A stretch of 61,730 nt of DNA from Candidatus Omnitrophota bacterium (GCA_043821445.1 JBDRCT010000021.1:1-61730), one strand, 5' to 3'. Numbered from the stretch's first letter, positions 2,683 through 61,200 are shown. Notes: generated from the letters alone by a model not told the origin. Numbers and translations are program-made.

Positions 2683-2730
2683 TCGGGACCCCGCCTTCCC
2701 CGTCTTCCTTTTCCCGAGTAGCAGGTAAGA

Positions 2731-3336: not shown

Positions 3337-3339
3337 ATT

Positions 3340-4359: not shown

Positions 4360-4361
4360 GC

Positions 4362-46300: not shown

Positions 46301-48211
46301 AAGTTTGCCTGCGGCCTGAAGTTTCTTAAGGCCATTCCCGAAATGCTCGATGTTGGCGAGCCATTTTTCTTTTAAGTTCGGAGTCTGGAGTCCGGAGTCC
46401 GGAGAAAGCTCGTCGATGAAGCGGGTGTAGCCGGACGCTTCGGCGATCCGTCCCTGCTCCGCCAGGTCGCGGATGATCTGGTCGCGCCATTGCTTGCGCA
46501 CGGAACTCGGAACTCGGGACTCGAGGTTCGTTAAGCCATTCGTATGCAAAAGCTTGTCCCTGGTAGCACGGACAAAAGCATCGTAGAGATTCACTTTGCC
46601 GTTTTTGACCTCGAAGTAGTTCTTCCAGGAAACGTCGCCCTCCATGTGCTCGCGATAAAGCGATTGTTCGGGAAGACGATCGATCTGGGGCACCACAAGA
46701 ATGTACGAGATCCCCTTCTCTTTGAATGTCTGTGTCAGCCCTCCGGTGTGGAAGCCCCCAGCTACAAGGATCGCTGTGTTTGCAGTGCGGGGCTCGTTTT
46801 TTTTCATTAGATCATTCAAATTTTTATAAAAAACTTCGTCGCGCTGCTCGGCAATGCGATAGAAACGAAGGTGGGGCTCGAGTTTTGTCCGCAATTCAGG
46901 ATCAGGGGTCCATGGCTTCACCATGGTCTTCTTCAGGATCGTCCAATCCTCAAAACTGAGTTCCAGCTTGGCGAGGCGTCCCAGAAGCGCCAGTTCTTGG
47001 GTTCGGACATTCAATTGCCGGATCGAGTCCCGGGTTGCGAGCTCCGAGTCTCCGATCATTTTTTCCGTTACCGCTTTCGTATAACGCTCGAAGTCTTCAA
47101 ACAGGCGCGTGCCTTCGATGTCCCGCAATTTCTTTTGATCTTCCACCAGGGAGGCGAGCTCACGGGAGACTTTGATCTTCACATTCTGTTGCTTCGCGAG
47201 GTCCTTCAGGAATAAGGCAAAGGCCTGCGGTGTCAACTGTGATGTCTGGTATTCCTGCCGCTTTCCGTAGAATGCTTGGAGTTCATGTTCAAGCTCCGGC
47301 GAGGCAGATCGACTCTTGAGAACCGACTCCATTTGTTCCGCGATCTTTTTGACTTCGATCGAAAGACTCTGTTCTGTTGTTTCTTGTCTCTTGTCTCTTG
47401 CTTCTTGCTTTTGGTTGATCTGAATTTCTCCAAGCAATACCGCGAGTTCCGAACCTTCGGGAGGCAGCAGGTATTGACTTAGCCCGCTCAGGACTTGCGC
47501 AAGGTCGGTCTTATTTTCGCCGAACTGCGCAAGAAGACGGTCGACCTTAAGAAGATCTCCGGGGTAAATCGCCTCTTTTTCCCGTTCTAGGTCGATGATC
47601 CGTTGCTGGAGCAATGCCGTGACTTCACCTTCTGTTTTCATGGCTTCTAAGAAGTTGGCGATCCCTTTTTCGTAAAGTTCCCAATCTTCGATGCCTTGAA
47701 AGATCGTTGTGTTTCCGCCAGAGGCGGATCCGCCTCCGGCGGAGAACAAAGCGGCCGCTGTCCCGCCGGTAAGCTCGCCTTTTTCGGAATAATCATCGAA
47801 CGTCTTACGGAGCAGTCCCTGATCCGGAAAACTCCGGAAGATCTGCGGGTCCAGCCTTTCCGAAGCTCCTTCAAGTCCGACGAGAGTGACCCCGTACTCT
47901 TTTTGAAAAAGATCAATAGCAGACTGGATACTGCGTTGGGCATCAGGAACGGAGTGGGCGTCCTGGATCAAGATCACTGTTTTGTCGCTTGCCCCACGGT
48001 AGATTTCCCGGATCTTTCCAATCTCAGCGGGGAGCGAGATATCCATCAAATCCTTAAACGGTGTGACAGGATCCGGACGGACAGAAGACACCGTATTCGC
48101 ATAGGCAGAAGGCATCGTCCATGTCACACTCGTGAGTGTGAACATAAAGACCACCCCCCAAACGATGGCTCGCAAAGCGGCGCCGTAGTTTTTCTTACTT
48201 TTTATGGTCAT
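31301..48211 (-). CDS. Giant modular ORF 1 (5,636 aa): signal peptide + conserved N-module + ~15 cargo modules + conserved C-module
   Basis: Uninterrupted 16,911-nt ORF. Sec-type N-terminus (MTIKSKK..AIVWGVVFMFTLTSV..AYA-N). Contains 15 RSExR junction motifs plus 1 RAEVR. Recognisable internal domains are listed as separate features. The terminal modules are paralogous to the neighbouring giant ORF. Confidence 0.85.
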   Translation of the reverse strand: MTIKSKKNYGAALRAIVWGVVFMFTLTSVTWTMPSAYANTVSSVRPDPVTPFKDLMDISLPAEIGKIREIYRGASDKTVILIQDAHSVPDAQRSIQSAIDLFQKEYGVTLVGLEGASERLDPQIFRSFPDQGLLRKTFDDYSEKGELTGGTAAALFSAGGGSASGGNTTIFQGIEDWELYEKGIANFLEAMKTEGEVTALLQQRIIDLEREKEAIYPGDLLKVDRLLAQFGENKTDLAQVLSGLSQYLLPPEGSELAVLLGEIQINQKQEARDKRQETTEQSLSIEVKKIAEQMESVLKSRSASPELEHELQAFYGKRQEYQTSQLTPQAFALFLKDLAKQQNVKIKVSRELASLVEDQKKLRDIEGTRLFEDFERYTKAVTEKMIGDSELATRDSIRQLNVRTQELALLGRLAKLELSFEDWTILKKTMVKPWTPDPELRTKLEPHLRFYRIAEQRDEVFYKNLNDLMKKNEPRTANTAILVAGGFHTGGLTQTFKEKGISYILVVPQIDRLPEQSLYREHMEGDVSWKNYFEVKNGKVNLYDAFVRATRDKLLHTNGLTNLESRVPSSVRKQWRDQIIRDLAEQGRIAEASGYTRFIDELSPDSGLQTPNLKEKWLANIEHFGNGLKKLQAAGKLSESGIAQLLKSITTAEPVLASVLVPGAEIRWPLSVPRSEVRATDAERLIEKIQEELRALRDPQEKIEVLSPLTLSEQELLLRYVLGNVKKEEEWMLRVFISHATELFGSIEDPELLVPGAQHPVRAVRSWATESLEALAEKNDDEIKQNLLKYLPQLLRVRKKEGDWENQKRLDHVLVYLGQKGAALKSVLADIRGNDPVSRQLVRILRWTEFVPALIQLDRERARDLVGSNGDILSLIALILAGHPDEEQHVLDQYCRGKARLADLRKFRKWALEARPGKVAVIEAERLGREQFLQLIKSLPDFEFEVTLTTSFWAGKQRYFVMCGDGGTVGGFPWMTLQNAVALHNHPPDANRPQDIVSSGDKNMIQNNFINRSVLPRLFAIQRDITTSRSLEMAEYGLKKGAKKRTAEIKGVYRGEQDIDRILEEVFQLSQISGRSEMRKTRSEARDNRLQGSSRRYFLGLCLKSFAFASVAGLPSVVLAQSSERTIFAARDWKIIGATDSGPGARPIRTPHGTFTEIKIVYKGDQIFSVKGNGYLRGVLPANYRGPNEERVDWGTSFVLPGYWSEGVYSHNPRITQAKFKSGKDGTVVLSGVMEDKKEAFQSKDFKMIFRKPLKESVEAEVSFTLKARRNFSIDADRAANHEGFKVLQFSSMNIGTAHDADFAIYQGENKAMVRSPTAGKNRFIVPQPQPLEHGLVYLTNEKPSSWGYRPTVFIQMLPDSTPSDFSAQGWIAESSNPNDDNLGAWIHFDRTKKTPYKKGNTIVRVHAVLGTTRPGLPLVAPASRSEARSSAGVPETEMMERFALLMDPAERARREIEEVIFSIGPGDGKFEAEITRDPHRAVVAADTYGVEYRDYHERFFRNDLTIQREAVFRPNLVLLNKDFQELLKAVPDRTLDALVLLHSDPEPLARFLADKGPIDKLKDGGKIYIKPYALRMYAEDTVALLEKNYKKQSGSRLFSVSVEGDYSSATPFYIFTKGAEGAAAVDVPDSNVTDGLFNLILGSDLLSGLSPETRGVLEGMVSFFPNLESSQQTSQELVRVLKWGDLHGVALQQEIGAVLARAMAEKIRGRTVKSHIVPGRSSSQRRSEARVAAFKTSQGLFIEEYGDTRRAVEQYARLMADTILDNNRYDRDTTYILPTGSTPIELYDAFIRIVASERIDLSRLHTFNMDEYYPGAAMKKLVPAIAVKQAGFLSSAVSTVVGSLMKRFVPTAKGPVWAEDIHSFRAFMEDKLFKHLRKFGFKDANIHFLNGNAEDFEAECRRYENSFPGRIDLGFGGIGRDGHIAFNEPIIIIGNDLIRKKLSGDQVREWEKKFADFNEFLLEQDVDFDQAVTMALANHFHIRTSNEFREELQGTLKASMKKDSWGPEDLGDLDGLIRGLLGQKVIFYVDEITNERKEQLAEIKAQVERSLGRPVQVVLSQEKPSAMRTRRVELAVPTIIDNMRDFSRIKEMPLQALTIGPETFRRAAKIAVLAFGENKADAVKKATQEPASSEVSASFLQGHPDATFAMDVKAGALLTRPRSEIREDHTPEGLRLLDEGFLRFTPDSLPDFNRRLNILEKNPINGLGINPLNGHMVSSYLWKHPLAQQHPFEMMPIRVIEAELYEKIDAHESNLLWFDERYIPIAGDGIYHPNGSVLSEQELKFAGLKKVFNASGEPVRVKMLVTGNRVFALPGPWVVPYVEEGIGIRILSTFDEISELAGEKVTRNNAGMILKRLAGQGKVRLKVAATIEFKGVGAASFLTSVVTPDALAGLDRKMVYIPGADYKKVTGTASRVGGGVGATGREASFAKGMDAMLRREGAQLLADTVYSSRLFNALTLPELIATKWQQTWYSVRMSFDTNRLAGLVSESYGPLPVWADHDLMEASYQELFQKESREGLDDIVLRYLMENMASNLRALWVTKRNRTRSSNITDNYGPLMQMIDTSVDSVKSFDGEEGARQLFADWRDYPNRFFQAMVHKIANLPVPVSGSLSYAVRRPYFGEAYLRLLLRDPGLVADAERAFAEADRTGSAGIGESEFMALTEEFLKKAFPPATNLQETENRRSDPPSQSEGRIRPDSPNRAEVRDVTVSQPGPGVVRLTSTGKELLTPHADGGYHVDDFVGEASKTRTVMYQGATAKEFLKRTNVFEHETQVVVPAGAEAIVTTEGESFKLSEPGVIGMSHHTTASVAVTRGDIVVITLDKSPAWYEWREEDSGKNVTGKAWEKGGVVVYRHRDRKNWYDLKNGVEGEMGWITDSTTQRFPRSRFPPIVGVSRVEYPEHSGVFSFHDLRTAENLHEHPILNGNWELVETYVVTRGAAALVYFIKDPTGHYRPEILYLRPGDAAFVQPGTIHDLLAIEAPYEHVVFFTPSVHQYGYGTFKRLVEDQEVGMDRAALVKEAMARLRSEIRSSDAVDPEFRAKVMEPIGEKLAERRNGQDYQILILVGASGNGKTEIAKLLQSQGVGEYGPEDIAFMETDDYLGSWSHETPFKLDFFKDDLDALLTQGKRLVIISGVYTPNFLTGYEDHIVDVLLDSPVEQSRLRALVRDGGIAPHKETYRMFKDAPRSIYDLVLTDIPSFSPPLKRSATGSSFSFVSPEIYGKRLGEQSYRVSVRDMDRIIDLIYRESERSGLVTWIDPLSNVLSDVEQLVRGVERTLESMRDKGNTSVIMTVRSFEKGLEVILDGQQDDGTRPRWGDSLSFMVDYIPERFFARKGWWVARTIDKPWEGTSPKPEGGVLAAFGFPSARIDQPRFKNSYSVFTSSAGQRSESREEKPVVGSLSERELQDKIAEIETLNLPGRYAPIIQWIKGEGNLYLPASELTEQTAIVDLGTSTGYGALDLHEAFPAPYIYAVDPKEPSGVAITLHPSDKIVLKKADQRLLGFDFADKGGRPLRVKVIILFNVMQFYRPDEVADIVRQSTEKLDEGGLYILGVRYPTGRTKEFPVLKLMILQKVNGAMVPRELILRQFTDNKSTNLADWVRFMSDDSARVFGPRLATIDRKINAVRTAMLPLEAATLLVQGSTPQIEHRIFQTQQQTLLEEGVQFRPFNFPSDLFGDGSQNESVPIAIPFDQPALRGGSLPFAGRSEMRDAGGQLRSANRISLPVRVVLPGAWKMMAPDLMVVDRLFFVYMTLLQRIAADRDLRETVLNFGDPIKADNSRERNIVHLFRTGRNGGNVAAFWHAKDAGASNLETGAQGLSILFYRLGKLLLEKLPHKEAERLKNGLARWTQRREPSTPDDLLSRFIGTTAVQVSDDTVRQPELEWVLRHERAHWALRVKANPADRETLKKGYVAFLRSANGPKVLREFFLKNKSSYDDQVAEDIERVKIGREDQVKFADEFWAQLAYPEEVFHESSPLVQVIEDLRRIDPVFEEAAVLLERLVRYEGDVKAGEDLRAIVADFGLHQMYPEAGLDAARSEMRDEALIKKIEAIQVTGNNQALYNFVFTGSLIPQRYGLFPGADITVHFFEIYKNGTRSVGWMALAPFPGTPFGEGWQGHRLILTDMHIEDHVDRGQGIRTGFLKSLDPGTSLWFLPLTNSTALVEMSRMAVEQLKKLPQADTLLEEFESLLDGLPEGMDLDDEEDLFVDILPLLYRYQETMEQNDGLTSLAELFKKTFLAKVAEKAGFSIKKVWMEKGYDASVEDDTFQLSVEAQKKEAKYEQVFPGAKKGIGVAEEQVQPSMSFERFSRASRIREKVNLIKSGITEGDPYSVLYFGAGIDLPNVLVTTGADEVVMVDSKGVMKEDVERVDRWFKGDFSKETAIHSVADLAEQSADLVRTKATRGFTREDELYGVSLPLSLWAALRSMGVDRMSWGTNENGILFIEFEKPFPAGKNRNVRFYFVRSGNLTEPGMFQSTGNPQLTKIMGREFDAYFQNGGQSLGHFYDHFIDQVRVKENGFWIVDDHYWPDADFRYHPRKKELVKVLQEFGFNVRDALEGDAELTEALRQTGYGEVNVILQNLGGQSLAPAVPGVRSEARVSSRKVEIPDSNHGINEETFYLRPGAGNVIHISVRGKDGMQFRIERGIDQKYVVLEFNPAGRQIGRTLVSGKTVYVGEPSQEDEFKDIHARPYSRGLEQIDFWIKGEGTTIKIVNAGTDVLDISGSFSLDREMGQITSEEEQRSEMRGLAEIDRLSLNQYEIAKRLMQIEEKLKETLNFATEESDAELGNAVAYATLLSMLKKYAGPLSSKRMLEIGSREGYFLMALRELGMSCDGLEIAPKMVSFGKREGLSVFLGSILDLPRSLPGKYDVTFSRQVLDVLDDVTFDGQFREYDETDLVPGIKQARHRELGRRMLANLAALTNSGGISIHEVLDTLDFPVTKEDYENAGFEVLDEVSDEPHKAKIVILRRVSAAATGIRSEMRAAAINAANGTQSTIRELYQSSEPESRISTGFHYETFVLKAADGQKVPVSARILPIEEAPYFYEGLPHEFSREKKQVDDGIAILEAALKDGEGTVEGHFIFSVKQSGEEVFLEIGNVLAQDDNQRTSGVARNLKYVGTRLIQLAVLLSQSDARTRGAIRFASRKQDPDAERFYDALRPYGLNKEPGENSIYWSLKAEDAAKFVRSVDGRVRSQAGEEGILRHFRQVLPVAVPQEKRSETRSGTTEMLKGRVILHVDDDPADRANIQSSLERAGAEVLSVADGKTALEILGKRDVDAVVTDAHMPEMSGAELIRKVQAIKPEISIVMATREDIDNRNDLAHQLGIAVVRKNQVVETLSKLFKPVVPGRSEVRAQKVQLVPLVVEKLANVLEPSRKGVVLDTSEVLAVYELARKDLPALIQVLKTAAEEQMAQRSVQAGKLYDRIKEYQEEIFRKWAARPADSKEAGISVALMMDEKTNQPFLSRFAQVLKTYAGRRKVELIADSALLNTPELRASAGLYREHPLDPKSVKGTLTVLGSNAQVPLGFDAAAEKAAISMVDFGFRPLSVAFKAGNTPDDVLMRDHLELLLAVTLLHMAELIAERKKEDGPVTAAWLKTQLEAFFGIGGMFQANADGSLSILGAVVQQYLAQSAVGKAA
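31304..32155 (-). other. ORF1 C-terminal module (aa 5353-5636), related to the ORF2 C-terminal module
   Basis: Similar length to, and loosely alignable with, ORF2 aa 3951-4220. The extreme tails are similar: ...GAVVQQYLAQSAVGKAA versus ...LTSFIAAQKAMGASA. Confidence 0.5.
32171..32548 (-). other. ORF1 module aa 5222-5347: response-regulator receiver (REC) domain
   Basis: Has VILHVDDDPADR, DAVVTDAHMPEMSGAELI (phospho-acceptor Asp context) and ISIVMATRE. Bounded on both sides by RSETR/RSEVR. Confidence 0.7.
33281..33976 (-). other. ORF1 module aa 4746-4977: class I SAM-dependent methyltransferase domain
   Basis: Motif I MLEIGSREGYF, motif II CDGLEIAPKM, then YDVTFSRQVLD and GGISIHEV. Confidence 0.55.
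37097..38035 (-). other. ORF1 module aa 3393-3705: class I SAM-methyltransferase-like fold
   Basis: Motif I-like IVDLGTSTGYGALDL, followed by YIYAVDP and ILFNVMQF, then EGGLYILG. Confidence 0.4.
38051..39121 (-). other. ORF1 module aa 3031-3387: P-loop NTPase/kinase-like domain plus unknown C-terminal half
   Basis: Walker A ILILVGASGNGKTEIA followed by an acidic ETDDY and a hydrophobic strand LVIISG. Resembles small-molecule kinases of the uridine kinase/PRK type. Confidence 0.45.
39137..40090 (-). other. ORF1 module aa 2708-3025: cupin-fold domain in the C-terminal half (possible sugar-phosphate isomerase type)
   Basis: Cupin motif 1 ENLHEHPILNGNWELVETYVVTRG (HxH...E...G) and motif 2 GDAAFVQPGTIHDLLA (G..P.G..H). 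Confidence 0.5.
41726..43018 (-). other. ORF1 module aa 1732-2162: glucosamine-6-phosphate deaminase / 6-phosphogluconolactonase (NagB/Pgl) fold with two large insertions
   Basis: Motifs in canonical order: YILPTGSTPIELY, HTFNMDEYY, IHFLNGNAEDFEAECRRYE, GFGGIGRDGHIAFNEP, ALTIGPETF..AKIAVLAFGENKA. Insertions of about 40 aa and about 130 aa. Confidence 0.7.
46381..46404. repeat. Heptamer array (GAGTCYG)x3.4 inside giant ORF1
   Basis: gagtctg gagtccg gagtccg gag. It is the reverse complement of the CGGACTC family. Confidence 0.75.
46501..46521. repeat. Heptamer array (CGGRACT)x3 inside giant ORF1, inverted relative to 46381-46404
   Basis: cggaact cggaact cgggact. Same unit family as the ORF2 (CGGGACT)4. 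Confidence 0.75.
47383..47410. repeat. Heptamer array (CTTGTCT)2(CTTGCTT)2 inside giant ORF1
   Basis: cttgtct cttgtct cttgctt cttgctt. Encodes part of NQKQEARDKRQETTEQ. Confidence 0.8.
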
Positions 48212-48537: not shown

Positions 48538-51500
48538 TTACGCTGAGGCCCCCATGGCTTTCTGAGCCGCGATAAAACTCGTTAGATTGGCCATTAACTC
48601 GCCTAACCGGCCTTCCCTGTCCAACATCGCAATAGCAATGAACGGAATCATACCTTCCAAGGAACCCAGGAGCTTGTCCGCCGCCAAAAGCGCCGAGGCG
48701 GTTTGCTTGAGCGGACTCGTTGCATCCCCGATCACGCTCAAAAGATACTTGCGACCGCCGATCTTGGCCTGCACCGCAGGATCTTCCTGGTCCATAACGA
48801 GCGCTACCGCTGTACCGCGAGGAGCGGCATCATTATAGAACGCCGTGAATTGAACGTTAAAGTCGGATGCGTTCGAAACCGCATTCACCTTGAAATTTTT
48901 TCCGAGGACATCGCCAGCACCCACGGCAAGAGCCTTCTCGAAGGCTTTGACATCATCGACATGCGCGATCAGCGCCAGTGTCACCTGGGCTCTCGGGTTA
49001 TAGCGTGCAAAAGCTACCAATGGCAGGACACTCGCCACATCCGGAACTCCGTGGCGTAAATCAACCAAGAGTCTTTCCTTGGAAGCCCTCGCGGAATGGG
49101 ACAAGATCGTTTTGAAAATGGTCCACTTGCTGAACGCCGCAGGAATGGCCGGCACTGTGCTGAAATGTTCAGGAAAAAGTTTTTGAGCGATCCCGGTAGC
49201 GACCCCCGCAGCAAACACCTTCGCTGCGGTCGCGATTGAAAGGATACGCGCGGTCACTTTCTCGGCCGTGATCAACGCGGCTTCAAGCGTCGGATTCCGC
49301 TCAAGAGAGATTTGTCCTATCGAAATGTTCAAGTCCCCGATGACCGCTTCCCGCACTTCCGAGCGGGAGGCTTCCCCTTGATCTTGTGGGATTGCGGGTG
49401 TAGCCGGAGTTTCGGATTGCACAACAGGAGTCGTGGGACTCACTTTTGCCGGTTTTTGACGCTCAAGCACCCGTTGGACTGCAAAAGCGGTGGAAGCGGT
49501 CAATCCTGCTGTTGCAATTTCTTTTACCCCTTGCAAAAGCGGTAGGATCATTTTTGCCAAGACCTTCCCCAGTTCCACGCCCCACTGATCGAAACTGAAA
49601 ATATTGAGGATGAACCCCTCCGCGGCAACCTGATGCTCATACATGGCGATCAATTTTCCGAGCATATAGGGAGTCAACTCATCGATCAAGATCAAATTAG
49701 TGGGTTTGCTCCCCTCAAAGGTCTTGTGTCTTGCCAACCATAGGAAATCTTCCTCCGTCCAATTTTCATATTTCTTTGGATTTTTTGCCTGGTCCGCTTT
49801 GAGTTCCGCTAAAACTTGAGTCGTGGACTTCCCGACCGCAAGGGCTTCCGTCTGACCCAAAAGGTTTGACAGGAGCACTTGATGATGCCCCGGCACCGTA
49901 TGCGAAGGATTGATGAAACCGATGAAGTCCTCTGGTATCACATCCCCCTGATGCGGTTGCTGTTGGTAAGCATGTTGACCGTTTGTCATGGCTTCCCCAA
50001 AAACCGAAGAGCTCGTGCTATACGTCACACGTTTGCCATTACGGTCAATGCTTTTGCCGTTCGACTCCATGAACAATTGCTGAAGATAGGCCCCCAGACG
50101 GCTTAAAAGCTGGGAGTACGGCGCCACAATAAAAACCGTCATCTTCAGAAAAATACGGTTCCAGATATCCAGAAGGGCCTTCAGTACCGGGATGTTTTTG
50201 GCGAACGGTGCCGTCCGGAAATGCACATCCATCTCATGGGCGCCGGCGAGCATTTGGAAGAAATTCTCCGGCCCGATTGCGAGCATGATCGGAAGACCGA
50301 TCGCCGACCACATGGAGTAACGACCGCCGACCCAATCCCAAAATTCAAACATATTCGCCGTATCGATCCCGAATGCTTTGACCAATTCTTCCGCTGTTGA
50401 GACCGCCATAAAATGACTCGCGACCGCCCTCTCGTCGCCTTGGTAATGTTTCAGGAGCCAATTTTTGGTCGTAACGGCGTTCATAATGGTTTCTTGTGTC
50501 GTATAGGTCTTGGACAACACAAGAACAAGCGTTTCTTCGGGATCAAGTTCCTGCGGCACGCCCGGCATTTGCCCCGTAACCTTGCTTGCGACATCCGCGC
50601 CATCAACGTTAGCAACGAAATAGAATTTCATACCTGTCACCCGGGATGCCTCCAAGGCCAAAACTGCCATCTCAGGCCCAAGATAAGAACCGCCGATCCC
50701 TTCGACTACAACATTTTTAAATTGCTTGCCGGTATATCCTTTCCGTGCTCCGGAATGGATTTCACGGACGAATTGGGCCATTTTATTGAGAACTTTCAGC
50801 ACGTCCGGCATCACGTCTTTGCCGTTGACGATCATCGGCCCTGCAGAGATCCATTCTCCGGTCGCTTCATCTTTCTTGATATTACGCAAAGCTGAATGAA
50901 AAACCGGCCGTTTTTCCGTTTCGTTGATCGGAGCTCCGGCGAACATGAGATCGATCGACTTCCGAAGTCCCGTTTTCCCGGCAAGCTTGACCAAGAGATT
51001 AAGGACCTGCTTTGTGATAAGGTTCTTGGACCCGTCAAAATAAAAGTCCCCGAGATCCACGGAGAAGTTCTCACGTCGTGTAGGATCTTTCTCGTACGCT
51101 TTCGCGATGTTCATTCTTTTCACGAACGGAGCAAAAATCTTGAGCGTCATCCATTCCCACGATCTTGACGGATTGACGCGCGGCAATATGCCCTCGCGGA
51201 CCTCAGAGCGGGTTTGACCGGACCGGAGTTCCTTCACTTGGGCCTCAAGCTTTTGGATTTGCTGTTCGAAACTGGCCAGACTGGCCTTCGCCTGCTCGCG
51301 TTGCGATGTTCCGCCTGGCAACAATTCCGGCTGGTCCGTATAGGCAGACACTATCAAGTTCCCCATTGCCTCTTGCAATATCCGGATCTGGGCCAAGAGC
51401 CCTGGGATCCGTGCATCGGTTCTCGCTTCGGAGCGCGCAGACTGAAGTTTTTTGAGCGTTCCCTGGAGCCGTTTAACGCGGCTCGGAATATCCACCAACA

Positions 51501-54500
51501 ACCGGGTCTTTGCTTGAGGGTCCACATCTGCCACTGGTTCCAGTTTTTGGGCCGCCGCCTCCAAACGCGCGATCTTGCGTTCCAGGCTGATGATCTTCGG
51601 ATTTTTTTCCCTTGCTTCCGAGCGACGTTCTCTTGCTTGACGATTGCCATCAAGGATCTGTTGCGCCTCACCGGCCTTTCGATCGAGCCACGCCTGAGCA
51701 TGTTTCAGAATAGATTTCGAACGCGCCAGTGTTTCCGCCTTATCTTGTCCATTTCTCCAGCCCAAATAGAATCCAGGCAAAGCACCGTTAGAGACATCGG
51801 TTTTGTGATAAACCCATGCACGAACGTCCGCGTTTGCAAACTGCTTCTGGAGATAGGATTCCAAATCCAACCACAAGAGATAGCTCTGGCCAAAACTTCT
51901 CCAATTTCCATCAAAAAGGTCTGAAAGACGTTTTAGCCGGATCATTTGAAACCCCTCGACCGGCTGGTTTTGCCTCCATCTGGAATCTTTCACGTTTTTC
52001 ACTTGCAAATCTTCTTTCAAGGCGTGAATCACGGCCAAGACAGAACGCGGCCTGACCTGCTCGCCTCCGTAAATCGACATTGTCTCAGCTCTCACCTCGG
52101 AACGCTTTTCCACTTGAAGCGTTATCGATTCGAAAGGCTTACCTTCAGTAAGCGTGACCTGCAGGTCCGTACCGGACACATTGTGAGGAACATTCTTGGT
52201 CAACCAGGTTCTCGGAAGCTCGGTGACCTTTTCTCCGGAAAATCTCACTTCAAATCCATTATCCTTACTAAAAGAACCCGTTGCCTCGATGGTCAGGCCC
52301 TGGACCGTCGTCCGGACGTTGCGGAAGACTCCCTTTCTCGCCGGCATGTCAAGCTTCACGACACGGACTCTCCCCGTCAGCCTGTCTAAAACCCATAAAA
52401 CTCCTCTTCCCAAAAGAAACTTCTCCAAAATGGTACGCAGGATGTTTCCCAGCCCGGGACGGGAAAGACCGAAGTACTTCCTCACGGACGGAGGAAGATC
52501 CTTATCGGCAACGATGTAGCCCACAAAATGGGATTGGTCCTGGGAGGCTAAATTGATTTTAAGATTGACGGGTTGCACTTGCTCTTCGTGAGCTGCCGGC
52601 TGCCTTTCCTGGCGGACATAGATCTTCCCGTTATCAAAATCAATGTGCGTGACCCCGGAAAACGGATACGACCTGTTTACCCTTGCGGAATATATTTCGA
52701 GATCCCCCGGGATACCTTGGTGCATCCGGAAGACAATGGAGGGGAGGGATCTTATCCCCAGTTGATCGAGTCGCTGCCCGATCGCTTTGCTGCTCATGAA
52801 TTTCGTTGCCACTGATGCCGCAATCGTTCCTTCCGTGAAAAGGCTGCTACGGACCTCGGAACGGGCGACCATGGCCGTATTGGCAGCATTCGCCATCGAA
52901 ACGGCCTCTTGAAGCAACGTGTGGGGCGGCGCAACGATGATCTCTACTTGACTTTGACGGACAAATTCCTCGCCCGCTAATCCCGTGATGAATGGATCGA
53001 GGTTGTCCCTTTTTGCCGACGGCTCCGCCTTCCAATTGGCCGCGAGGACGAGTGTCCTTCCGTTCCCTTTGTCCCCTGTTGCGCTTATGATCCGGCCCAT
53101 CTTGGAAAAACTTTCCAATTTCAGGCTCGCGCCCCCGACCAGGAATCCGTCGATATCGGGCTGGATCGAAAGACCGCCAACATTGTCCGGCTTCGCCGAA
53201 CCGCCGTAGAGGATCCTCATATGCGCCGCGAGTTCCGGAGAGTAGGTCCTTGCAAGCCAATTCCGGATCGCTTGATGCACCTCCTGAGCCTCTGCCGGCG
53301 TAGCATTCAAACCGGTGTTGATGGCCCAGATCGGCTCATAAGCGATCATGCTCACCGCCTTTGCGACATCTTCTTGGCTCATGCCATGGAGCGCCTCTCC
53401 GAGCTGACGAAGAACAAACAAAATGTGATTTCCGGCGTCTCTTACGCTCCGGGGTTCGCCCACGCAAAGCAATTGCACCGGAGCTGCACCCTTGGCTGCC
53501 CATTGCAACTTTTCATTGATGACTTCGTCGGTATCCCCGAATTGTTCGTACGTCCTCAGAAGTTGCCCGAATGCGGGCGAACTTTTGTCGGTACCGTACA
53601 CTTCCACCATCCGGTGCCGTCGCTCGCTGTGACCGGTCAGTGATGCTGTGACACCGACCTCTTGAAGATGCTCATAATTGACCGAACCTGTCGCTGCGCC
53701 CGTTTTAAGTGAAAAATGCTGGGCAAATATCTTGATCGGCCTCGCTTCCGCCCGCGCTTCCGAGCGGGCGGGTTGGATCGCTGTAGCGAGGGCTTGCGGC
53801 ATAGCCGGAAGCGGGGCCACATGGCCGAGCGCATACTGCTGAAAATAACGGCGACTGTCCTTTGCACCCAAAAGGCCGTACACCTTGACCTGCCAGTCAT
53901 TCAAACGCTCGATCACTTCCTTTTCCGTGGCCTCCGGCATCCTTGTCAGATAAGGAAGCAACGGCGCGCAAAGGTACTTCACGAGATCTTTCAACTTGCT
54001 GCGGGCCTCTCCGGGGACATCATTACTGTCCGAAACCATCATCAGAAGAACCCTGCGACGATCTTCGGTTTTGTTGACATCAAGACCGCGTTCGGCATTT
54101 ACTACTTGAATAAAACGATCCCACTTCGGAGGCAGCATTGCGCCGGTCTTCTTATCTTTCTCCGGCTGTCCGAACTTTACAGTATTGCTTTGGATCCCTA
54201 CCGCATACGCTAAAAGATCTTTCGGCTCGATCTTCAATGCCGCAGCATAATCCTTCAATACCGGGGTCAGGCTCTCCTCGACCGGCTTCATGAACAGCAC
54301 CAAGAGATCCCACATCACATCCGCCATGGCCGGGTCTTTCTGCGCCACGGCCTCAAGAACGATGTTCTGGAGCTGTGTCGCAAGGTGCACTTCCCCCACC
54401 CGGTGTTTCTGCAGGATCGGAAATTGATCGTCCGTCAGTTTCGAGGCGCCGTGCTGCACACCCTGGACTTTCAGAAGTTTCTCGTGGATGCGGAAGACGA

Positions 54501-57500
54501 TCGTGTTCACGCGCCGGCCCGCCACCCCATGGGCCGTCCCAGTCTGATAACTGATCTTGTCCAAACCCGCGATATCCACCCCGTACTTCGCCTTAAATGC
54601 AGCATTCCGGACCGCAAGCCCTTCCTTAACGCCCGCAATGAACGCAAGCGTCCCTTCCACTTCACTCGGCTTATCGGCCAACACCTCATCATCAATATGA
54701 CGTTCCTCACCGCCGATCAAGGTGACCGTCCCGCGTGCCATCAGTCCCTTGCTCTTGAGCTCTTCATCATGCGCGCGGATCTTCACGATCTGATCCACCG
54801 TCGCGGCGATCGTATGCTTATGGATTTCGCGGTACCGTTCGATGCGGCCCTGGTCCACCCAGTTCCAAAGTTCCGGCTCCGGCATGTCATCGATCCAATG
54901 ACCGATCGATTCAAGCGTTTCCCCGGCTTCCAAACGCTTCCGGACCTCATTCATGAGCTTGGACAGACCTGTCGGGTTGTCCGGCGTGACGGATTCCGCG
55001 TACAGTTTGGACAATAAAATAGTATCCACGGCCGTGGATGGATCAAGATCGATATGATAACCGCGGGCCGTGATCATATCGCGGATCTCAGCCTCGAATT
55101 TATCAAACGCTTTCTTGCGCTTGGCAAGGTCCACGTACGGTTCGCGTTCATCCAAGGTCATCGCTTTAAACTTCTTCGCGAACGTTTCCGGATCTTCGCC
55201 GGCAGGGATCTTCGTCTTATCCAAGCCGAAAATGTCATCCAGCTTCAGCTGACGGTGGTCCGCCTGGGCGATGATCGGAACTTTCGAGCCCACGAACGCG
55301 TGCGCAATTTGCGCGGCCGCAAGGAACATCTCATTCGTTTTAAGGCCGGAATAACCTTTTTCACTCGCGGCGAGTTCCGCGATCCCGCCGGCGTTCAGCC
55401 GGTCCAGCGACTCAAAGAAAGAGATCAGTTGGATGATGCCGCCCGCGCGCATGTTGGTGGCGGGGATCACCCACACCTTATCTAGATTTGCTTTCTCACG
55501 ATAAAGCGAAGCCGCGGACATCATTTCGACACCCCGGGCATTGGTGATGGCGCTCGCGATCCAATAAGCGGCATGATTGACATCCGCATTGGGATTGTCT
55601 GTCAGTTCACGCGTTAGATCAAAAAGACGGCGATTCCCTTTCAACCCCTGCAAGATCTCAACGCCGTTTTCGTTCACACGAACAATATCCGAAAAATTCT
55701 GCAGCAGCTCACTCACCGACCCCGACAACGCCGGCATTTCCTGCATCTTCACCATCCGCACTTCGGAGCGGGCAATGGCTTCCTTCACGCTGACGAGCGA
55801 AGCGACCGGAATACCGCCTTCCTCCAAGAATTGAGGGGCGATCCCCTGCATGCTTCCAAGATAGACCTTTCTTTGAGAGACCATCGCGATGATCCCCGTA
55901 ACGGTCTGGGTCTCCGGTTGTCCAAACGGCCTCCATTCCAATACCACGGGGACCGCAGAGTTTCTGTAGGCCTCAAGGGAGGTTTCATGGAACGAATCCC
56001 TCAGAAGCGCATAATAGTCCGTCCAAAAAACAAGATTGGTCGTGATGTTGGTCTGGGCCCCGAAGAGCTGCTCGTGTCCCCGCAAAGCCAGCACGGTCCC
56101 GGTAGCGTTATCGATCGTAGAAAACACAGAGACGCTCTTTCCTGCCGGCAATACGACACCGTTCGCAGACACACGGATCCCGTGGGATTCCAACTCACTT
56201 TGGTGCGCCTTGAGATATTCCTGATCGATCAGTCCTGCCAGGTATTTTTGGATCGCGGTCACCTGCTCTGCGGCGGTCCTTGCTTCCGAACGGTGAAAAG
56301 ACACTTGAACGCCGGTCCCATTGGGCTGCATTTGGGCTGTCGCCGAGATCCTGATCGGCCGGAGGATCCCATTCGTCCCGTTGTTCCGGCGAAGGACCAT
56401 CTGAAAGGCACTGAGTTGTTCGGACTGTAACCCCAAATGGAAGAATACGCGATCCTCATGGTTGCGTCTCTTCAAAAGAAAACCCACAAGCTGCCAAGGT
56501 TTGTCCGGAAATTTGGCCACGACGGCGGACGGAACCTCAAGATCCTGGGGCAGCTGATGTTCGTGGATCGTTTCAGAGAGAACTTCCTTCAGAGCAAATC
56601 TCTGGACCGCATCGGGGATCGAAACGACACCCCACTCCAAATGTGACGCCGAGACGCGCACCGTGGGACGTCCCGGGAACTGTTGCAACGAGCTTTCTTG
56701 GTCACCCGTTTGTTCTTTTTTCTCGTTCAAACGCTCGAGCTCCTCCATGGCAAGGTCCAGGTTCAGACTAACATTCCGAATTTCTGAACGGTATGCGGCA
56801 AATTCGATCGATCCTGTCCACGTAAAGGATTCTTGAGTCGTCGTTCCACGATCAGCACCGAAAGCTGGATATTTTCGGGCAGAAGCTGGGGTCCGTGTGG
56901 TCATTTGCCAATCGATCGCAACCTCTTCCCCCTGAGAAACGAACTGGATACCCGGATCCTCACCTTGTTCGAGCGCCATTTCAATAAAAGTGAGTTTGTC
57001 TTCGGGAACCGAACGCCAATCGACACGGATGGAGGGCCCTTTGCTGAGATAAGTGCCCCCTTGGCTTCCTACGGTCGTCGGTAGAACCCCGACGTTTTCC
57101 TGGGCATACTGTATGAGCAATTCATTGATCCTTTTCACCGCCTGAGGGAAACGGCCAAGTTTTTGGTGGGTCTGCCATGCTCTGAAAGCCACAAAACCCG
57201 TAACCGAAAGAGCGATTCCGCCTGCGACTGCCGGTAACCACGACCGCGTCTCTGAACGACCTGCCTTGGCATTCCTGACCTTCTGGGAAGGATGAGGACG
57301 TTTTGTGTTGGGTCCGTGAAGCGCCGTAATTTTTTTATGATCTTTGGTCCTTTGCACATTTTTCGTTGCCGCTTTTGCCCTCTCTCTCGCAACTTGCTCC
57401 TTCTGATTCGCTTGTTGGCGCTGGCTATCCGTATTACGAATTTCCGAACGGACAATTCCTTGTCGAGCGTTGCTAAAAACTACATTAAATCGAAAATCAT

Positions 57501-60500
57501 GTGCCGCTCGTAAACCGACTAAATAGGCTTCTATCCCCGACGCACCTTGTCCTTCAAAGGAAAGAACCATGGGGGGATATCCCGGCTTCATCACTTCCCA
57601 CCGAAACGTTCTTAACGTCTTTAAACCGATGCTGGGAAATATTTTCCGGTCCAAAACTTGCGGTTGTGCGTCATGAGCCTGTTGGAAGGTTTCGACTATA
57701 GTTTGATCTTCCCGCACCGTTAACTTTACCATTTTAATTTGATTTGCTTCAACCCCAGGCAACGGTACCGGCAATCCATATCTACGCTGCTCAAGGATTA
57801 ACTCTTGGCCGGAATTGGAAATCTTTATCCGTTCGCGAATGCCATCATCAAAACCCACATTGGGACCAAAAACGAGTTGCTTTTCCGAATTTTCAACTTG
57901 GAATAGGGCCCTCAAAAAACCAACGAGTTTTTCCGCCCCATCTTGCTGGCTAAAGTCAAACGTGATAGCGCCGCCGCGCATCTCCGAGCGTTTCCGAGCA
58001 TCGGACGAAGACAACAACCCAATTTGCGCATCTAAGATACCCTCCACAACCGCGTCCGGGGCCATCGCCCCCATAGTAAACATCCCTTTTGCTCCGCGAA
58101 GCGCCGCCGCTTGAACCGTGCGAACAGTAGAATGAAATTTCGCTATCTCCGCGCGAAGGGCTTTCATAGCCTCCGGATTAGCAATTGCGGTTTCATTGAC
58201 GCGGTCAAGAACAGCCTGAAGTGCCCCTAATTGCTTTCGGCCCTCTTCTTCGGTTATGGTCGGATCGCTTATGAGGAGCCCACCCACTCTTATCTTCCAC
58301 GGTTCGGTTATTGCTTGACGTGCTTCCGAACGGCCAGCGACCTGCAAAGAACTGAGAATGTCAATTGCTTGCTGAAGATCAGGAGGAAGGTGATCTGTTC
58401 TGACCTTTGTTGCAAGAAATGCACTGACGCTTCGAATTGTAGGAATAGCTTTATCGAATTCTGCCAGCCGGATTTGTTCTATGGCATACGAGAGCGATCG
58501 ACTGTAAGAGCTTGAAACGGAATCCACATCCCAGATCAAATCGCGCACTCTGTCTACTAATTCTATAGCCTTGTCTATTTTTGCCCCCGCACTTTTTCCC
58601 AGCCTTTCGAAACGGCGAAGTACCGCTTCACCCAATTGATTCATTTCTGCCGCTGAATTTCCAGAATAGAACTCTCGAAAAAAAGCCTGCAAGGCCTCTA
58701 AGGCTTCAGGACGTGACATAACCCCTTTTTCCAGATCGATCAGAACCTTTTCGGGTTGCACCGTTCGCGCCTCTGAACGACTGGCCTTCGCATTCCTGTC
58801 CTTCTGTGACGGCTGATGGGCTTTGGTGTTGGGTCCGTGAAGTGCCGGAATGATCGCATGATCCCTGGTTTTTGGCACATTCTTCGTTATCGCCTCCGCC
58901 CTCCTGATCCGGGCCTGTTCTCGCTCAAACGTTTTTTTACGCTGACTATCCGTATCACGAACTTCCGAACGGCCGTTTCGGGTTCCGCTGTTTGCATTAT
59001 CGAGCCGGCTATCAATCGGAGCAATTGAAGACCGATTCCCGTCAATAATATGCCCAGATCTGTCCCGTTGCGGAGTCACTTTGTTCCCTCTTCTGTCAAC
59101 AAGTTCTCCGTTTCTCCCCACGCTAACAGTTGTTCGATATCCCCTATCATTCGTAATCTCAAAACTCCGTGCCTCCGAACGGCCCGCCTTGGCATTCCTT
59201 ACCTTCTGTGACGAATGAGACTGTTTTGTGTTGGGTCCATGAGTCGCCGGGATGATCGTATGATCTTTGGGCCTTAGTACATTTCTCGTCGCCGCCATTG
59301 CGCTTTCGCGTCTGCGCTGTTGTTCCAAGGCGGCTTCGCGATCGACTGGGCCTCTAGTGGGAGCAGAAGGGACTACATTAAGTTTCTTAAGAGCGGAACC
59401 AGAGAACGCCAAAGAAAGAGCATCACGAATCATGGCCGGTTGTGTCAAAATTAAACCGGTAATAACATCACCAACTTTGGCCAGAAAATTGCGAACTTCC
59501 GACCGCGAAAAAACGGTTTCCATCGCGGTGGGATCCGAACCAAGGACGGCGCTCATCTGCGAAGTTTCGAATTCACGGGCACCAAGAATGGAACGCAAAT
59601 AAACTTCATGGTCGCGCTTGGTGACTTCGGTGATGCGCGGCGTGATCTGAAGATAAGAACAGTTTTTGGCGGCAGCGAGTTTTTTCAGACCATCGGTGTG
59701 GAACCCTCCGGTAACGATCACGGCGCGGTTTTCTTTTAGTTCACCCATTTTTTGGAGAGCGTTGGTAAACATGTGCTTTTCACGGACAACTGCAGTGGAG
59801 TAGAAATTCATGGCCTGCTTAAAAACACCTTGGATTTTCGGCTCAACGCTCAAAGCGCAAAGCGCAACGTCCTTTTTTGGATTTTCTCGTTGTGCGTTGA
59901 CCGTTGTACGTTGCGCGAGGTTCAATTCTTCATACTCACCTCTTGTTAACTCTAACTGGAAAAGTTTTCTAAGAAGACGCAGTTGACGGGCCTGGGCGAG
60001 ATATGCTTTTTCATCCGGAATTTGGGCCAAGGTGTCCTGGATGCGCTCTTGTAACCGCAAGGTCTCTGTATGGAGCCCTTTGCCTTCCAGTTCCTGCATC
60101 AGGATGATGTGTTGGGCATAAAGCGTCCAGCTCGGCCATGATTTCATGGAAAAGTCTTTGGGGAGTTTTTCGAACGCAAGATCGAAAGCGCGGCGCAACG
60201 GGGAGTACTCGCCTGCGGCACGGGACTCGGGACTCGGGACTCGGGACTCGCGCAGAAGCACTTTAAAACTACTGACGACGTCTGCTGAGATCCCCCGTTT
60301 TTCTAGTACCTTGATGAAAGCTTCCGCTTCCTGGTGCGCCTTTTCATGATCGATCTTGGAACCGATCGCCTGCAAGCGTTCATAACGGACAAGAAAAGGA
60401 TATTCGTTCTGATGGAAAGCATCGGCAAGGTCCAGCTTCAGGTGTTCTTTGCTCGCTTGGGCGAGGACTTTGAGCCATCCTTCAAAAGAAAGCGTCCCTG

Positions 60501-61200
60501 AATCCAGTGCCGTTTCCTGACGGACAAGTGCTAAGAGGTTCTTATTGAGTTTCGTTGTGAATCGACGTTCAAGGACGCTGCGGAGTTCGCGTAAAGAAGC
60601 CTGCGCGGCTTTATCTGCTTTTACCACCGCAATGAACGCTTCGCGGTCTTTTTTGTAGGAATCTAGGTTCTCGACCCCAAAGGCCTCGAACCCGCTCAAC
60701 GCACTACGCTCAACGTTCAACGATCCTTTCTTTTCCGTTGCGCGTTGTCCGTTGCGCGTTGCGCTATTGTGATTAATCAGAAAATTCTCCGGGCCGGTGA
60801 GATATCCTTCCTGCATGAGCTTATCCGTGACCTTGCGGTTGAAGTCCGGATGATCGGGAAACATACGAAAGAGTTCAGGCTGGAGTTTGTTCGCTGCACC
60901 TTCAAGGAGCATGAGACGAACCTTGGAATTTTGCTCGATGTAACCGAGGAGTTTTTCGATGTTTTTCTCGGCCTCATAATTGCCGTGCGCGGACTGGATA
61001 TGGATGAGGGCCGGAGCTGTGGGGTCGCCCACGATCGTGTCCGTCACCTGCCCGAATTCAGCGGGGATCTCGAGCGTCTTAAACGGGACAAGAGACACTT
61101 CGGCCTTTGGCATGCTTGCGTAACCCATGGGGTTGAGGTTCGTCACCACAAAAATGAAGACAATAAAACCCGACACCATTTTCAATAAACGAACATTCAT
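48538..61200 (-). CDS. Giant modular ORF 2 (4,220 aa): signal peptide + conserved N-module + ~17 cargo modules (aldolase-like, TPI, PGI) + conserved C-module
   Basis: Uninterrupted 12,663-nt ORF. ATG at 61200 with an AGGGGGA Shine-Dalgarno 7 nt upstream (61208-61214). Sec-type N-terminus ([19 protein letters not shown]..GYA-S). Contains 18 RSExR junction motifs. Confidence 0.85.
   Translation of the reverse strand: [4220 protein letters not shown]
48541..49350 (-). other. ORF2 C-terminal module (aa 3951-4220), related to the ORF1 C-terminal module
   Basis: See feature 31304-32155. Follows the last RSEVR junction. Confidence 0.5.
49366..51195 (-). other. ORF2 module aa 3336-3945: full-length glucose-6-phosphate isomerase (PGI)
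   Basis: Collinear with canonical PGI: [91 protein letters not shown]. Confidence 0.9.
52864..53751 (-). other. ORF2 module aa 2484-2779: triosephosphate isomerase, circularly permuted (beta3-beta8 first, beta1-beta2 last)
   Basis: Order found: [50 protein letters not shown], then [10 protein letters not shown] (nt 53029-53037 = NWK) and [10 protein letters not shown]. Confidence 0.8.
53767..55755 (-). other. ORF2 module aa 1816-2478: class II (metal-dependent) fructose/tagatose-bisphosphate aldolase-like domain with a long C-terminal extension
   Basis: Family-ordered motifs: [20 protein letters not shown] (DH), [45 protein letters not shown]. The three His positions used as Zn ligands in class II aldolases appear retained. 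Confidence 0.55.
57259..57435 (-). repeat. ORF2 intragenic basic repeat module, copy 3 (aa 1256-1314)
   Basis: [59 protein letters not shown], bounded by RSEIR and RSETR. DNA-level similarity to copies 1 and 2 is visible. Confidence 0.8.
58780..58956 (-). repeat. ORF2 intragenic basic repeat module, copy 2 (aa 749-807)
   Basis: [59 protein letters not shown], bounded by RSEVR and RSEAR. Confidence 0.8.
59182..59340 (-). repeat. ORF2 intragenic basic repeat module, copy 1 (aa ~621-673)
   Basis: ...[37 protein letters not shown] followed by RSEAR. Confidence 0.75.
59842..59915. repeat. Heptamer-periodic palindromic element, copy B (in frame inside giant ORF2)
   Basis: CTCAACG CTCAAAG CGCAAAG CGCAACG - loop TCCTTTTTTGGATTTTCT - CGTTGTG CGTTGAC CGTTGTA CGTTGCG. 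Encodes [27 protein letters not shown], which is absent from the ORF1 paralogue. Confidence 0.8.
60221..60248. repeat. Perfect heptanucleotide tandem repeat (CGGGACT)x4 inside giant ORF2
   Basis: Direct reading gives cgggact cgggact cgggact cgggact. Lies in the coding region for aa ~318-327 (RVPSPESR). Confidence 0.9.
60695..60763. repeat. Heptamer-periodic palindromic element, copy C (in frame inside giant ORF2)
   Basis: CTCAACG CACTACG CTCAACG TTCAACG - loop ATCCTTTCTTTTC - CGTTGCG CGTTGTC CGTTGCG CGTTGCG. Encodes [26 protein letters not shown]. Confidence 0.8.

Follow-up and report, generated by a model that had tools for sequence, protein, structure and literature searches.

Giant open reading frames (ORFs) with few annotated domains occur across the phylum Omnitrophota (Seymour et al. 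2023), and triosephosphate isomerase (TPI), glucose-phosphate isomerase, FBPase, PGM, and FBP-aldolase have been listed among the domains of the giant Omnitrophota proteins termed 'Archaeovorins' (West-Roberts et al. 2023, bioRxiv 10.1101/2023.11.21.568195). In the latter study, cleavage of these proteins was described as an open question, the cleavage points being unknown, which blocked a module-wise analysis, and it was cautioned that the location predicted to be extracellular could flip if a transmembrane (TM) helix had been missed. A 'multi-enzyme metabolic cluster' class was subsequently defined, a signal peptide or TM helix was reported for 94% of the long proteins, and internal signal-peptide calls were suppressed as artefacts (Nielsen and Lui 2026, bioRxiv 10.64898/2026.06.07.730766). 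Here we describe ORF2, a gene for a 4,220-residue protein within a 61,730-nucleotide stretch of DNA from Candidatus Omnitrophota bacterium (GCA_043821445.1 JBDRCT010000021.1:1-61730; the whole stretch is referred to as the window). Its modules, which include an aldolase-like enzyme, a TPI, and a phosphoglucose isomerase (PGI), are delimited by the pentapeptide R-S-E-x-R, and we favour, with moderate confidence, the reading that ORF2 encodes a membrane-inserted polyprotein that is processed at this motif.

ORF2 has in common with the published giant proteins the phylum, the presence of many unrelated Pfam enzymes on one polypeptide, and an N-terminal signal peptide and/or TM helices. Glycolytic domains have already been reported for such proteins, and ORF2 is a smaller member of this described class: with 4,220 residues (5,636 in the case of the neighbouring ORF1) it lies below the size classes of at least 30,000 residues (West-Roberts et al. 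2023) or ORFs of at least 20 kb (Seymour et al. 2023), and, unlike the published set, it contains no dockerin, C39, S8, or SecA domains according to Pfam. The delimiter, the build of head, cargo, and tail, and a permuted TPI are additions that we could not find described. Term searches of the texts of the three studies gave no mention of a junction motif or of head and tail modules; in the literature library searched, the motif strings returned only noise, no paper pairing Omnitrophota with the term polyprotein was found, and neither was a report of a natural circularly permuted TPI.

Several systems outside the phylum are comparable in part. The MARTX toxins of Vibrio are giant proteins with conserved ends and variable cargo modules, which fold independently and are freed by cleavage at short inter-module sites; besides RTX-type repeats, they possess a cysteine protease domain of their own, are cut after leucine, and serve toxin delivery into eukaryotic cells. 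ORF2 resembles them in its conserved ends and variable cargo, but Pfam detects neither RTX repeats nor a cysteine protease domain in ORF1 or ORF2, and the cargo of ORF2 consists of housekeeping-type enzymes that are predicted to be cytoplasmic. In viral polyproteins (e.g., at picornavirus 3C sites) and in the Arg-X-processed gingipain/HagA proteins of Porphyromonas gingivalis, a junction motif is cut by a cognate protease. ORF2 likewise specifies one long product with a short junction motif, but its cleavage is something we infer, and its cargo is central-metabolic and regulatory rather than composed of virion, replicase, or adhesin domains. The phosphoglycerate kinase (PGK)-TPI fusion of Thermotoga (NF010569) also links TPI to another glycolytic enzyme in a single ORF, but it comprises two enzymes, is uncleaved, and has a canonical TPI, whereas ORF2 has 19 modules, delimiters, and a permuted TPI.

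The window is a bacterial chromosome segment with about 52% G+C and carries housekeeping genes (TyrRS, IleRS, Lgt, RluD-like, futalosine-pathway menaquinone genes, and an ABC transporter). The homologues of the N-terminal 565 residues of ORF2 are labelled 'Candidatus Omnitrophica/Omnitrophota', and, as judged from sequence comparison, the host is an Omnitrophota bacterium. The ORF list and the translation confirmed ORF2, uninterrupted over its 4,220 codons, as a giant protein with enzyme modules, as described in a first-pass annotation made from the sequence alone; the module coordinates given there are exactly the segments that are obtained when ORF2 is cut at R-S-E-x-R. ORF1 is located directly downstream in tandem on the same minus strand and shows the same head-plus-cargo build, its last module having no detectable relation to the tail of ORF2. 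Its cargo includes a 6PGL/NagB-like module (glucosamine-6-phosphate isomerase/6-phosphogluconolactonase-like), a P-loop module, an S-adenosylmethionine (SAM) methyltransferase, and a stand-alone-sized receiver domain; the 6PGL/NagB-like module represents another hexose-phosphate enzyme.

The evidence for processing centers on the delimiter. R-S-E-x-R is present in 18 copies in ORF2 and 15 in ORF1, compared to 0.09 and 0.14 copies, respectively, expected from shuffled sequences (maximum of two copies in 2,000 shuffles of ORF2), and a 12.6-kb stop-free frame with 18 copies of a five-residue motif is far beyond chance. The variable position x is occupied by A, V, M, I, T, or S, position -1 is mostly G, A, or S, and the motif bounds every module of ORF2. 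In the remainder of the window, matches occur at chance level; an in-frame RSETR within the TyrRS gene (30928-30942, minus strand, residues 90-94) and three out-of-frame matches are compatible with chance. The four fixed residues are encoded by several synonymous codons (Arg by CGN/AGR, Ser by TCN/AGC, and Glu by GAA/GAG), which places the constraint on the peptide and not on DNA or RNA. An origin of the motif at the DNA or RNA level, such as internal ribosome-binding sites or a repeat element, was rejected because of this synonymous variation and because the motif is not Shine-Dalgarno-like; further reasons were the lack of a start codon past the motif in most modules and an Rfam scan of the window that gave no match.

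The motif marks the borders of complete proteins. The PGI match starts eight residues past a motif at position 6 of the 544-position profile, and a motif-bounded module of 126 residues in ORF1 corresponds to exactly one receiver domain. In two related giant ORFs (L012 and L009; L and P numbers designate further loci and proteins), none of the 23 motifs lies inside a Pfam envelope, and the bounded modules are whole enzymes, namely a two-domain GT4 glycosyltransferase, a phosphomannose isomerase with its cupin, an epimerase/dehydratase, and an adenylate kinase. Across 80 giant ORFs from the window and related loci, comprising 241,000 residues, the slightly relaxed motif R[SA]ExR was counted 235 times versus 12.6 expected (about 19-fold), as compared with 12 versus 5 expected in the ordinary ORFs of the same loci. 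A motif of this type is the top-enriched 5-mer in many loci with heads that are 25-74% identical, and in L006 it is retained at the same positions though the flanking sequence has diverged. Further giant ORFs and multi-module proteins have other recurrent motifs: ASSP[VIL] brackets the FBPase, TIM, GAPDH, and aldolase-like modules of P0038, AxSLG recurs in giant ORFs of two genomes (L028, L029, L034, and L084), GEKxYPA is the recurrent junction motif of a giant ORF in one further genome (L044), and [GRK][RK]STDM[SA] and KEGRGLP are recurrent in two further multi-module proteins (P0094 and P0076). Different junction motifs in different lineages are what one would expect if cleavage sites evolve together with the protease that recognizes them.

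Some modules begin like proteins with a targeting signal of their own. In ORF1, the module m04 has a Tat-like start (SSRRYFLGL, a hydrophobic core, and then VLAQS) ten residues after an RSEAR; in ORF2, the module m09 starts with a TM helix right after the delimiter; and starts of this kind following the motif were also seen in L015 (VRRSFVKS) and, as signal-peptide-like sequences, in L011 and L018. Internal signal peptides would be meaningful only after cleavage. The head is encoded separately in L001 and L019, where the stop codon of its gene comes two codons past RAELR. This 649-residue head gene of a related species ends with ...RAELRQD-TAG in L001, L002, L003, and L019 (at about position 11948, in L019 at 11894), the next giant ORF continues in the same frame past the single stop, and the same sequence is present in independent assemblies; the stop could be either an ordinary gene boundary or a read-through site. 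Read-through or recoding of in-frame stops between modules was dropped, as the frequency of the single in-frame stops (TAA or TAG) that separate long ORFs in related loci is compatible with a sharing of the frame by chance.

The ends of ORF2 are conserved in other genomes. The head module was detected in 254 loci, with one genome per GTDB species considered, nearly all of them in metagenome-assembled genomes of Omnitrophota, with 74% identity for the best match, and in most of the 80 inspected loci it starts a long ORF; the heads of ORF2 and ORF1 share 32% identity over 139 residues (E=6e-16). H67, Q69, H72, N74, and E100 are invariant, and the GGFH at 498-501 is shared by at least 90% of the sequences. 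Eight of ten family members match the ChaN/Tiki family PF04187 weakly (best E=0.0023, under the gathering score), and the non-significant Foldseek matches include EreC (erythromycin esterase), BcR135, ChaN, and HopBA1, all of which we take to belong to the ChaN/Tiki superfamily. The head is a weak candidate for a member of this superfamily, which should be treated as a lead and not as an assignment; Foldseek gave no significant match to a solved fold, and a profile of the head found no relevant PDB sequence. The AlphaFold2 model (predicted local distance difference test score (pLDDT) of 72.7) has a helix at residues 3-20 followed by a disordered stretch. Homologues of the tail form the last ~220-270 residues of giant ORFs in eight loci (L062, L018, L059, L013, L002, L019, L007, and L021) with 36-48% identity (44-48% in six of the seven aligned loci; L019 was found by tblastn only), and in most of the eight an R[SA]ExR-type motif precedes them. 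The tail has no Pfam, NCBIfam, or PDB match, and its AlphaFold2 model (pLDDT 52.6), with a generic Rossmann-like core, is uninformative.

The cargo between head and tail differs strongly among related genomes. L006, with a head 69% identical to that of ORF2, has in common with it only the head region, the short, basic modules that are repeated, and one half of m14; this C-terminal half is 78% identical to an L006 module and is followed at the same place by RSEVR. The module table confirmed the presence of four modules (m14-m17) between TPI and PGI, for which no Pfam or NCBIfam assignment was obtained. An upper-glycolysis metabolon, as considered in the first-pass annotation, is weakened by these four unrelated modules, which part TPI from PGI, and by the variation of the cargo among relatives. 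As a separate feature, ORF2 contains three short and very basic modules of about 59 residues (58780-58956, 57259-57435, and the end of m02 at ~59182-59300, all on the minus strand); the repeat, ...RDHxIIPALHGPNTKxHxPSQKxRNAKAG, ends at a delimiter, is present in several copies in L006, and gave no family match.

The strongest competitor of processing is a chain that stays uncleaved and tethered to the inner membrane as a multi-enzyme assembly, in which R-S-E-x-R would be a linker, a docking site, or a modification site, e.g., with a phospho-acceptor serine. Working uncleaved glycolytic fusions are known, the best NCBIfam match of the TPI module is the bifunctional PGK/TPI model NF010569, the fusions in P0014 and L025 do without a delimiter, and no protease domain was found by Pfam in ORF1 and ORF2; in addition, a class with TM helices and no signal peptide was described as membrane-anchored with cytoplasmic domains (Nielsen and Lui 2026). 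We regard such an assembly as rather unlikely, as a flexible linker needs no four invariant residues across heads that are 25-74% identical, the swapping of functionally unrelated cargo among close relatives argues against co-operation within one assembly, and internal Tat-like and signal-like starts would make little sense in a chain that is never cut. That PGI and TPI are obligate dimers also speaks against it.

The N-terminus of ORF2 has a basic n-region, a 15-residue hydrophobic core, and the sequence G-Y-A/S (the slash marks the predicted cleavage point), and in the head homologues an A-x-A is found at the same place after the hydrophobic core (AFA/N, ALA/A, and AFA/G). The signal peptide was assigned by rule of thumb, and these features support the first-pass claim that it is of the Sec type. 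Apart from its signal peptide, ORF2 shows only one strong hydrophobic helix, which spans residues 1321-1342 in the context RSETR-SWLPAVAGGIALSVTGFVAFRAW-QTHQKLGRFPQAVKR and is followed by the positively charged residues R, H, K, R, K, and R. According to the positive-inside rule, the chain would have returned to the cytoplasm before the aldolase-like, TPI, and PGI modules begin, so that the three enzymes are probably on the cytoplasmic side and not exported. Such a placement fits their phosphorylated substrates and the dependence of the sister cargo (kinases, a receiver domain, and a SAM methyltransferase) on ATP, SAM, and phosphorelay partners. ORF1 has an analogous hydrophobic segment at residues 1101-1119, which is also Tat-signal-like (SRRYFLG). 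The simplest topology would have the head and the first ~1,100-1,300 residues outside and the remainder inside.

We consider it improbable that the signal peptide takes the whole chain, or modules freed from it, into the periplasm, to the cell surface, or into prey, where the enzymes would process sugars or, in the manner of MARTX, manipulate the metabolism of a host. The combination of conserved ends, variable cargo, and inter-module sites does parallel MARTX, all head homologues share the signal peptide, which looks cleavable, and the Omnitrophota include predators and episymbionts. Extracellular glycolytic domains of this kind were predicted before, together with the warning about a missed TM helix mentioned above (West-Roberts et al. 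2023). The export of the three enzymes proposed in the first-pass annotation is nevertheless not supported, as the helix at 1321-1342 and the following positive charges predict a return to the cytoplasm ahead of them and their sugar-phosphate substrates are cytoplasmic. ORF1 repeats the layout of signal peptide, about 1,100 residues, hydrophobic segment, and cytoplasm-type cargo, the sister cargo has the cofactor and partner requirements just named, and Pfam found no RTX repeats, cysteine protease domain, dockerin, or adhesin domain in ORF1 and ORF2.

The PGI module matches PF00342 (E=1.4e-171) and the NCBIfam equivalog NF001211 with 651 bits (cut-off 492) over profile positions 6-540 of 544, and its best match in the PDB is 6bzb (E=3e-147). 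The motifs GIGGSxLGP, SKTFTTxET, and GGRYS, the glutamate of (M)ESNGK, the histidine of GQHA, and the lysine of FDQWGVELGK all align to this structure, F/Y and D/Y substitutions being confined to neighbouring positions, and the earlier description as a full-length PGI with intact signatures is borne out by the profile coverage and this alignment. The nearest metagenome relatives are ordinary stand-alone PGIs with at most 50% identity (about 49% to all of the nearest). The module is on a long branch; of the 193 positions with at least 95% conservation in these relatives, it retains 155. At module residues ~396-418, the conserved stretch reads SSSVFGEAMTNGQHAYQQQPHQGD, in which the catalytic histidine is retained and several near-invariant neighbours are changed.

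The TPI module (PF00121, E=6e-57, profile positions 43-241 only) is, according to its alignments, a circular permutant. A phmmer comparison with 1b9b yielded three collinear pieces in permuted order: module residues 3-46 correspond to TIM 57-101 (GHSERR), residues 71-222 to TIM 103-250 (YEPIWAI, YGGS, and GGASL), and residues 232-290 to TIM 3-58 (NWK), with an insertion of about 24 residues after GHSERRH. The order is thus TIM ~57-250, a nine-residue linker, and TIM ~3-58 instead of the canonical β1-to-β8 order, which limits the Pfam coverage to 43-241 and explains why the NCBIfam equivalog cut-offs are missed (TIGR00419, 125.5 versus 130.6; with the other equivalog models, the scores remain far under the cut-offs). 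From alignments to 1b9b and 8v0a it is evident that the catalytic lysine, histidine, and glutamate and the phosphate-binding YGGS and GGASL are all present. When de-permuted, the module retains 49 of the 51 positions for which 113 ordinary TPIs show a conservation of at least 95%, the exceptions being an M-to-H change and a G-to-N change in the loop-6 motif (WAIGTG to WAINTG). The assignment and the catalytic signatures given in the first-pass annotation stand; the permutation was missed there. The best matches are ordinary proteins of about 250 residues with at most 48% identity, none of the 120 best database matches shares the permutation, and database searches found no close orthologues of the TPI and PGI modules for tracing the permutation or for estimating the ratio of non-synonymous to synonymous substitution rates. 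In L025, where a giant ORF at 3-5246 has nine RSELR motifs and, by eye from the translation, a region resembling GTP-type phosphoenolpyruvate carboxykinase (PEPCK), the TPI is canonical and non-permuted.

The aldolase-like module m12 scores 28.2 bits against PF01116 (cut-off 25.5) at profile positions 129-272 only and 15-20 bits against NCBIfam equivalogs with cut-offs of 215-542. Its family is rare: a search of 1.84 billion representative proteins gave 94 relatives, most of which are parts of long proteins. Stand-alone relatives of 430-470 residues match PF01116 with E-values down to 8e-17, and a search with a family profile gave AgaY and KbaY with E=2e-5. The catalytic Asp-His of QADH, the glutamate of GGEE, and the histidines of TAHG and QHGAS are invariant in 16 family members including m12. 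These data support an assignment of m12 at the level of the class-II aldolase superfamily only; the superfamily and the catalytic signatures noted at first pass are retained. The co-occurrence of the family with TIM, GAPDH, FBPase, isocitrate lyase, and malate synthase in P0014, P0015, and P0038 ties it to triose-phosphate metabolism. With the near-invariant positions of TPI kept and the metal ligands of m12 invariant, a check for substituted catalytic residues came out in favour of the modules, and all three enzymes look functional by these alignments. That the modules are captured, decaying copies under relaxed selection, with stand-alone genes elsewhere serving the cell, could be argued from the long branch and the 20% of changed clade-conserved positions of PGI, from the rearrangement and the unusual Gly-to-Asn change of TPI, from the absence of close orthologues of either in the searches, and from stand-alone TPI genes in some Omnitrophota (P0199), but it is very improbable in view of the fully intact catalytic and substrate-binding motifs, the score of PGI 159 bits over the equivalog cut-off, the 49 of 51 positions retained by TPI, a 12.6-kb stop-free frame that is unexpected for decaying sequence, and the independent recurrence of the combination of aldolase-like, TIM, GAPDH, and FBPase modules in other giant proteins.

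A processed polyprotein is favoured because the specificity and the conservation of the motif go beyond those of a passive linker, because it marks the borders of complete proteins, because motifs are lineage-specific and modules carry targeting signals of their own, and because of the gene boundary after RAELR in L001 and L019. The chain would start with a Sec signal peptide and the conserved head, continue with complete, unrelated modules, and finish with the conserved tail. Led by the signal peptide, the chain would cross the inner membrane with its head and its first ~1,300 residues; the transfer would halt at the helix (1321-1342), and the remaining ~2,900 residues, including the aldolase-like module, the permuted TPI, and PGI, would stay in the cytoplasm. 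The R-S-E-x-R sequences would be the recognition sites of a dedicated endopeptidase, for which the ChaN/Tiki-like head is a weak candidate only, and the modules would be freed as separate proteins, so that the three enzymes could act as ordinary cytoplasmic enzymes at the node of fructose 6-phosphate, fructose 1,6-bisphosphate, and the triose phosphates. Among the possibilities raised at first pass, release of the modules is the best supported, by the junctional motif, the whole-enzyme modules in relatives, and the targeting signals of modules; topology, cleavage, protease identity, and enzyme activity are what we infer.

A number of points weigh against this reading. The topology that it assumes was derived from a Kyte-Doolittle scan and the positive-inside rule. 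P0014, a protein of 4,828 residues and the closest relative of the aldolase-like module, lacks any recurrent delimiter, which means that delimiters are not obligatory for such fusions, and in L025 PEPCK and TPI are fused without a motif between them. Hydrophobic starts after the motif are only modestly more frequent than background (5.7% versus 3.1%, n=13). In the PGI module, 38 of the 193 clade-conserved positions (20%) are lost, as exemplified by the change of FYQLIHQG to YQQQPHQG. The link of the head to Tiki/ChaN is sub-threshold in Pfam and non-significant by Foldseek or PDB sequence search, and the members of the Tiki superfamily are not all proteases. Finally, the head is predicted to be periplasmic and most of the motif sites cytoplasmic.

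Table 1 Features of the giant ORFs in the window (positions counted from the first nucleotide of the window; a slash marks the predicted signal peptide cleavage point)
Feature	Position	Strand	Remarks
ORF2	48538-61200	-	4,220 aa, 19 modules, 18 R-S-E-x-R motifs; from ORF list, translation, and module table
N-terminal Sec-type signal peptide (aa 1-29), predicted	61114-61200	-	MNVRLLKMVSGFIVFIFVVTNLNPMGYA/S; Kyte-Doolittle peak at aa 1-26
Head module m01 (aa 1-565)	59506-61200	-	Conserved first module of Omnitrophota giant ORFs
Hydrophobic helix (aa 1321-1342), start of m09	57175-57240	-	Predicted stop-transfer/anchor; Kyte-Doolittle 1.70 over 19 residues
RSEVR delimiter	55756-55770	-	Precedes aldolase-like module; codons CGC TCC GAA GTG CGG
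Aldolase-like module m12 (aa 1816-2478, 663 aa)	53767-55755	-	Divergent class-II ketose-bisphosphate-aldolase superfamily enzyme with insertions; PF01116
RSEAR delimiter	53752-53766	-	Between aldolase-like and TPI modules
TPI module m13	52864-53751	-	PF00121; phmmer to 1b9b and 8v0a
TPI part 1 (module aa 1-222)	53086-53751	-	TIM ~57-250; GHSERR His, YEPIWAI Glu, YGGS, GGASL
TPI part 2 (module aa 232-296)	52864-53058	-	Relocated N-terminal β1-α1-β2, TIM ~3-58; NWK Lys
RSEVR delimiter	52849-52863	-	Follows TPI module
Modules m14-m17 (248, 155, 58, and 70 aa)	51211-52848	-	m16 and m17 look coiled-coil-like
RSExR motifs in the m14-m17 stretch	start at 52104, 51624, 51435, 51210	-	
PGI module m18 (aa 3336-3945)	49366-51195	-	Pro/Thr-rich C-terminal linker; PF00342, NF001211, PDB 6bzb
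RSEVR delimiter	49351-49365	-	Between PGI and tail module
Tail module m19 (aa 3951-4220)	48541-49350	-	Conserved C-terminal module of ORF2-type giant ORFs
ORF1	31301-48211	-	5,636 aa; signal peptide, head, and cargo; 15 RSExR motifs
ORF1 m04 Tat-like signal (aa 1087-1125)	44837-44953	-	

In the surroundings of the giant ORFs, the spacer between ORF2 and ORF1 was scanned for promoters and terminators, and nothing exceeded the shuffle background. Pfam found no protease domain in ORF1 and ORF2. The only protease-family gene seen in the window encodes an Rce1-like CAAX/CPBP intramembrane protease (4362-5315, minus strand); its distance to the giant ORFs is 26 kb, and nothing that we observed ties it to the motif. 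In one subfamily of head-bearing giant ORFs, the preceding genes encode a patatin-like phospholipase with a cNMP (cyclic nucleoside monophosphate)-binding domain, a thiolase, an acyl-CoA synthetase, and an S33 hydrolase (L050, 2244-9125). Matching gene sizes were found in L015, L043, L053, L061, L075, and L083, the conservation of this cluster being deduced from ORF sizes, with Pfam applied to L050 only. A secretion-system neighbourhood was rejected, as these upstream genes belong to lipid metabolism.

The papers devoted to the giant proteins of the Omnitrophota name as the key open question whether each of these works as one chain or is cleaved into many proteins. With R-S-E-x-R, sequence comparison yields, for the first time, concrete candidates for the cut sites in such proteins; a junctional motif makes the question of cleavage directly testable and splits giant ORFs into units for structure prediction, and the permuted TPI would be a natural test case for the folding of TIM barrels. 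Tentatively, and with a confidence that falls somewhat short of even, we extend the polyprotein reading to the phylum: the giant ORFs of Omnitrophota may be genuine cellular polyproteins with lineage-specific motifs (RSExR, ASSP[VIL], AxSLG, and GEKxYPA) and a co-evolving protease, which would supply central-metabolic enzymes (among them PGI, the permuted TPI, and an aldolase), kinases, and regulators by proteolytic release instead of from separate genes, with cargo being shuffled between genomes module by module. Known users of the polyprotein strategy are otherwise viruses and a small number of secreted virulence factors. If the reading is true, a free-living bacterium would make glycolytic housekeeping enzymes from a polyprotein, and metabolic reconstructions of the phylum would change, for instance with respect to glucose-6-phosphate isomerase, which has been called in only 67 of 176 complete genomes.

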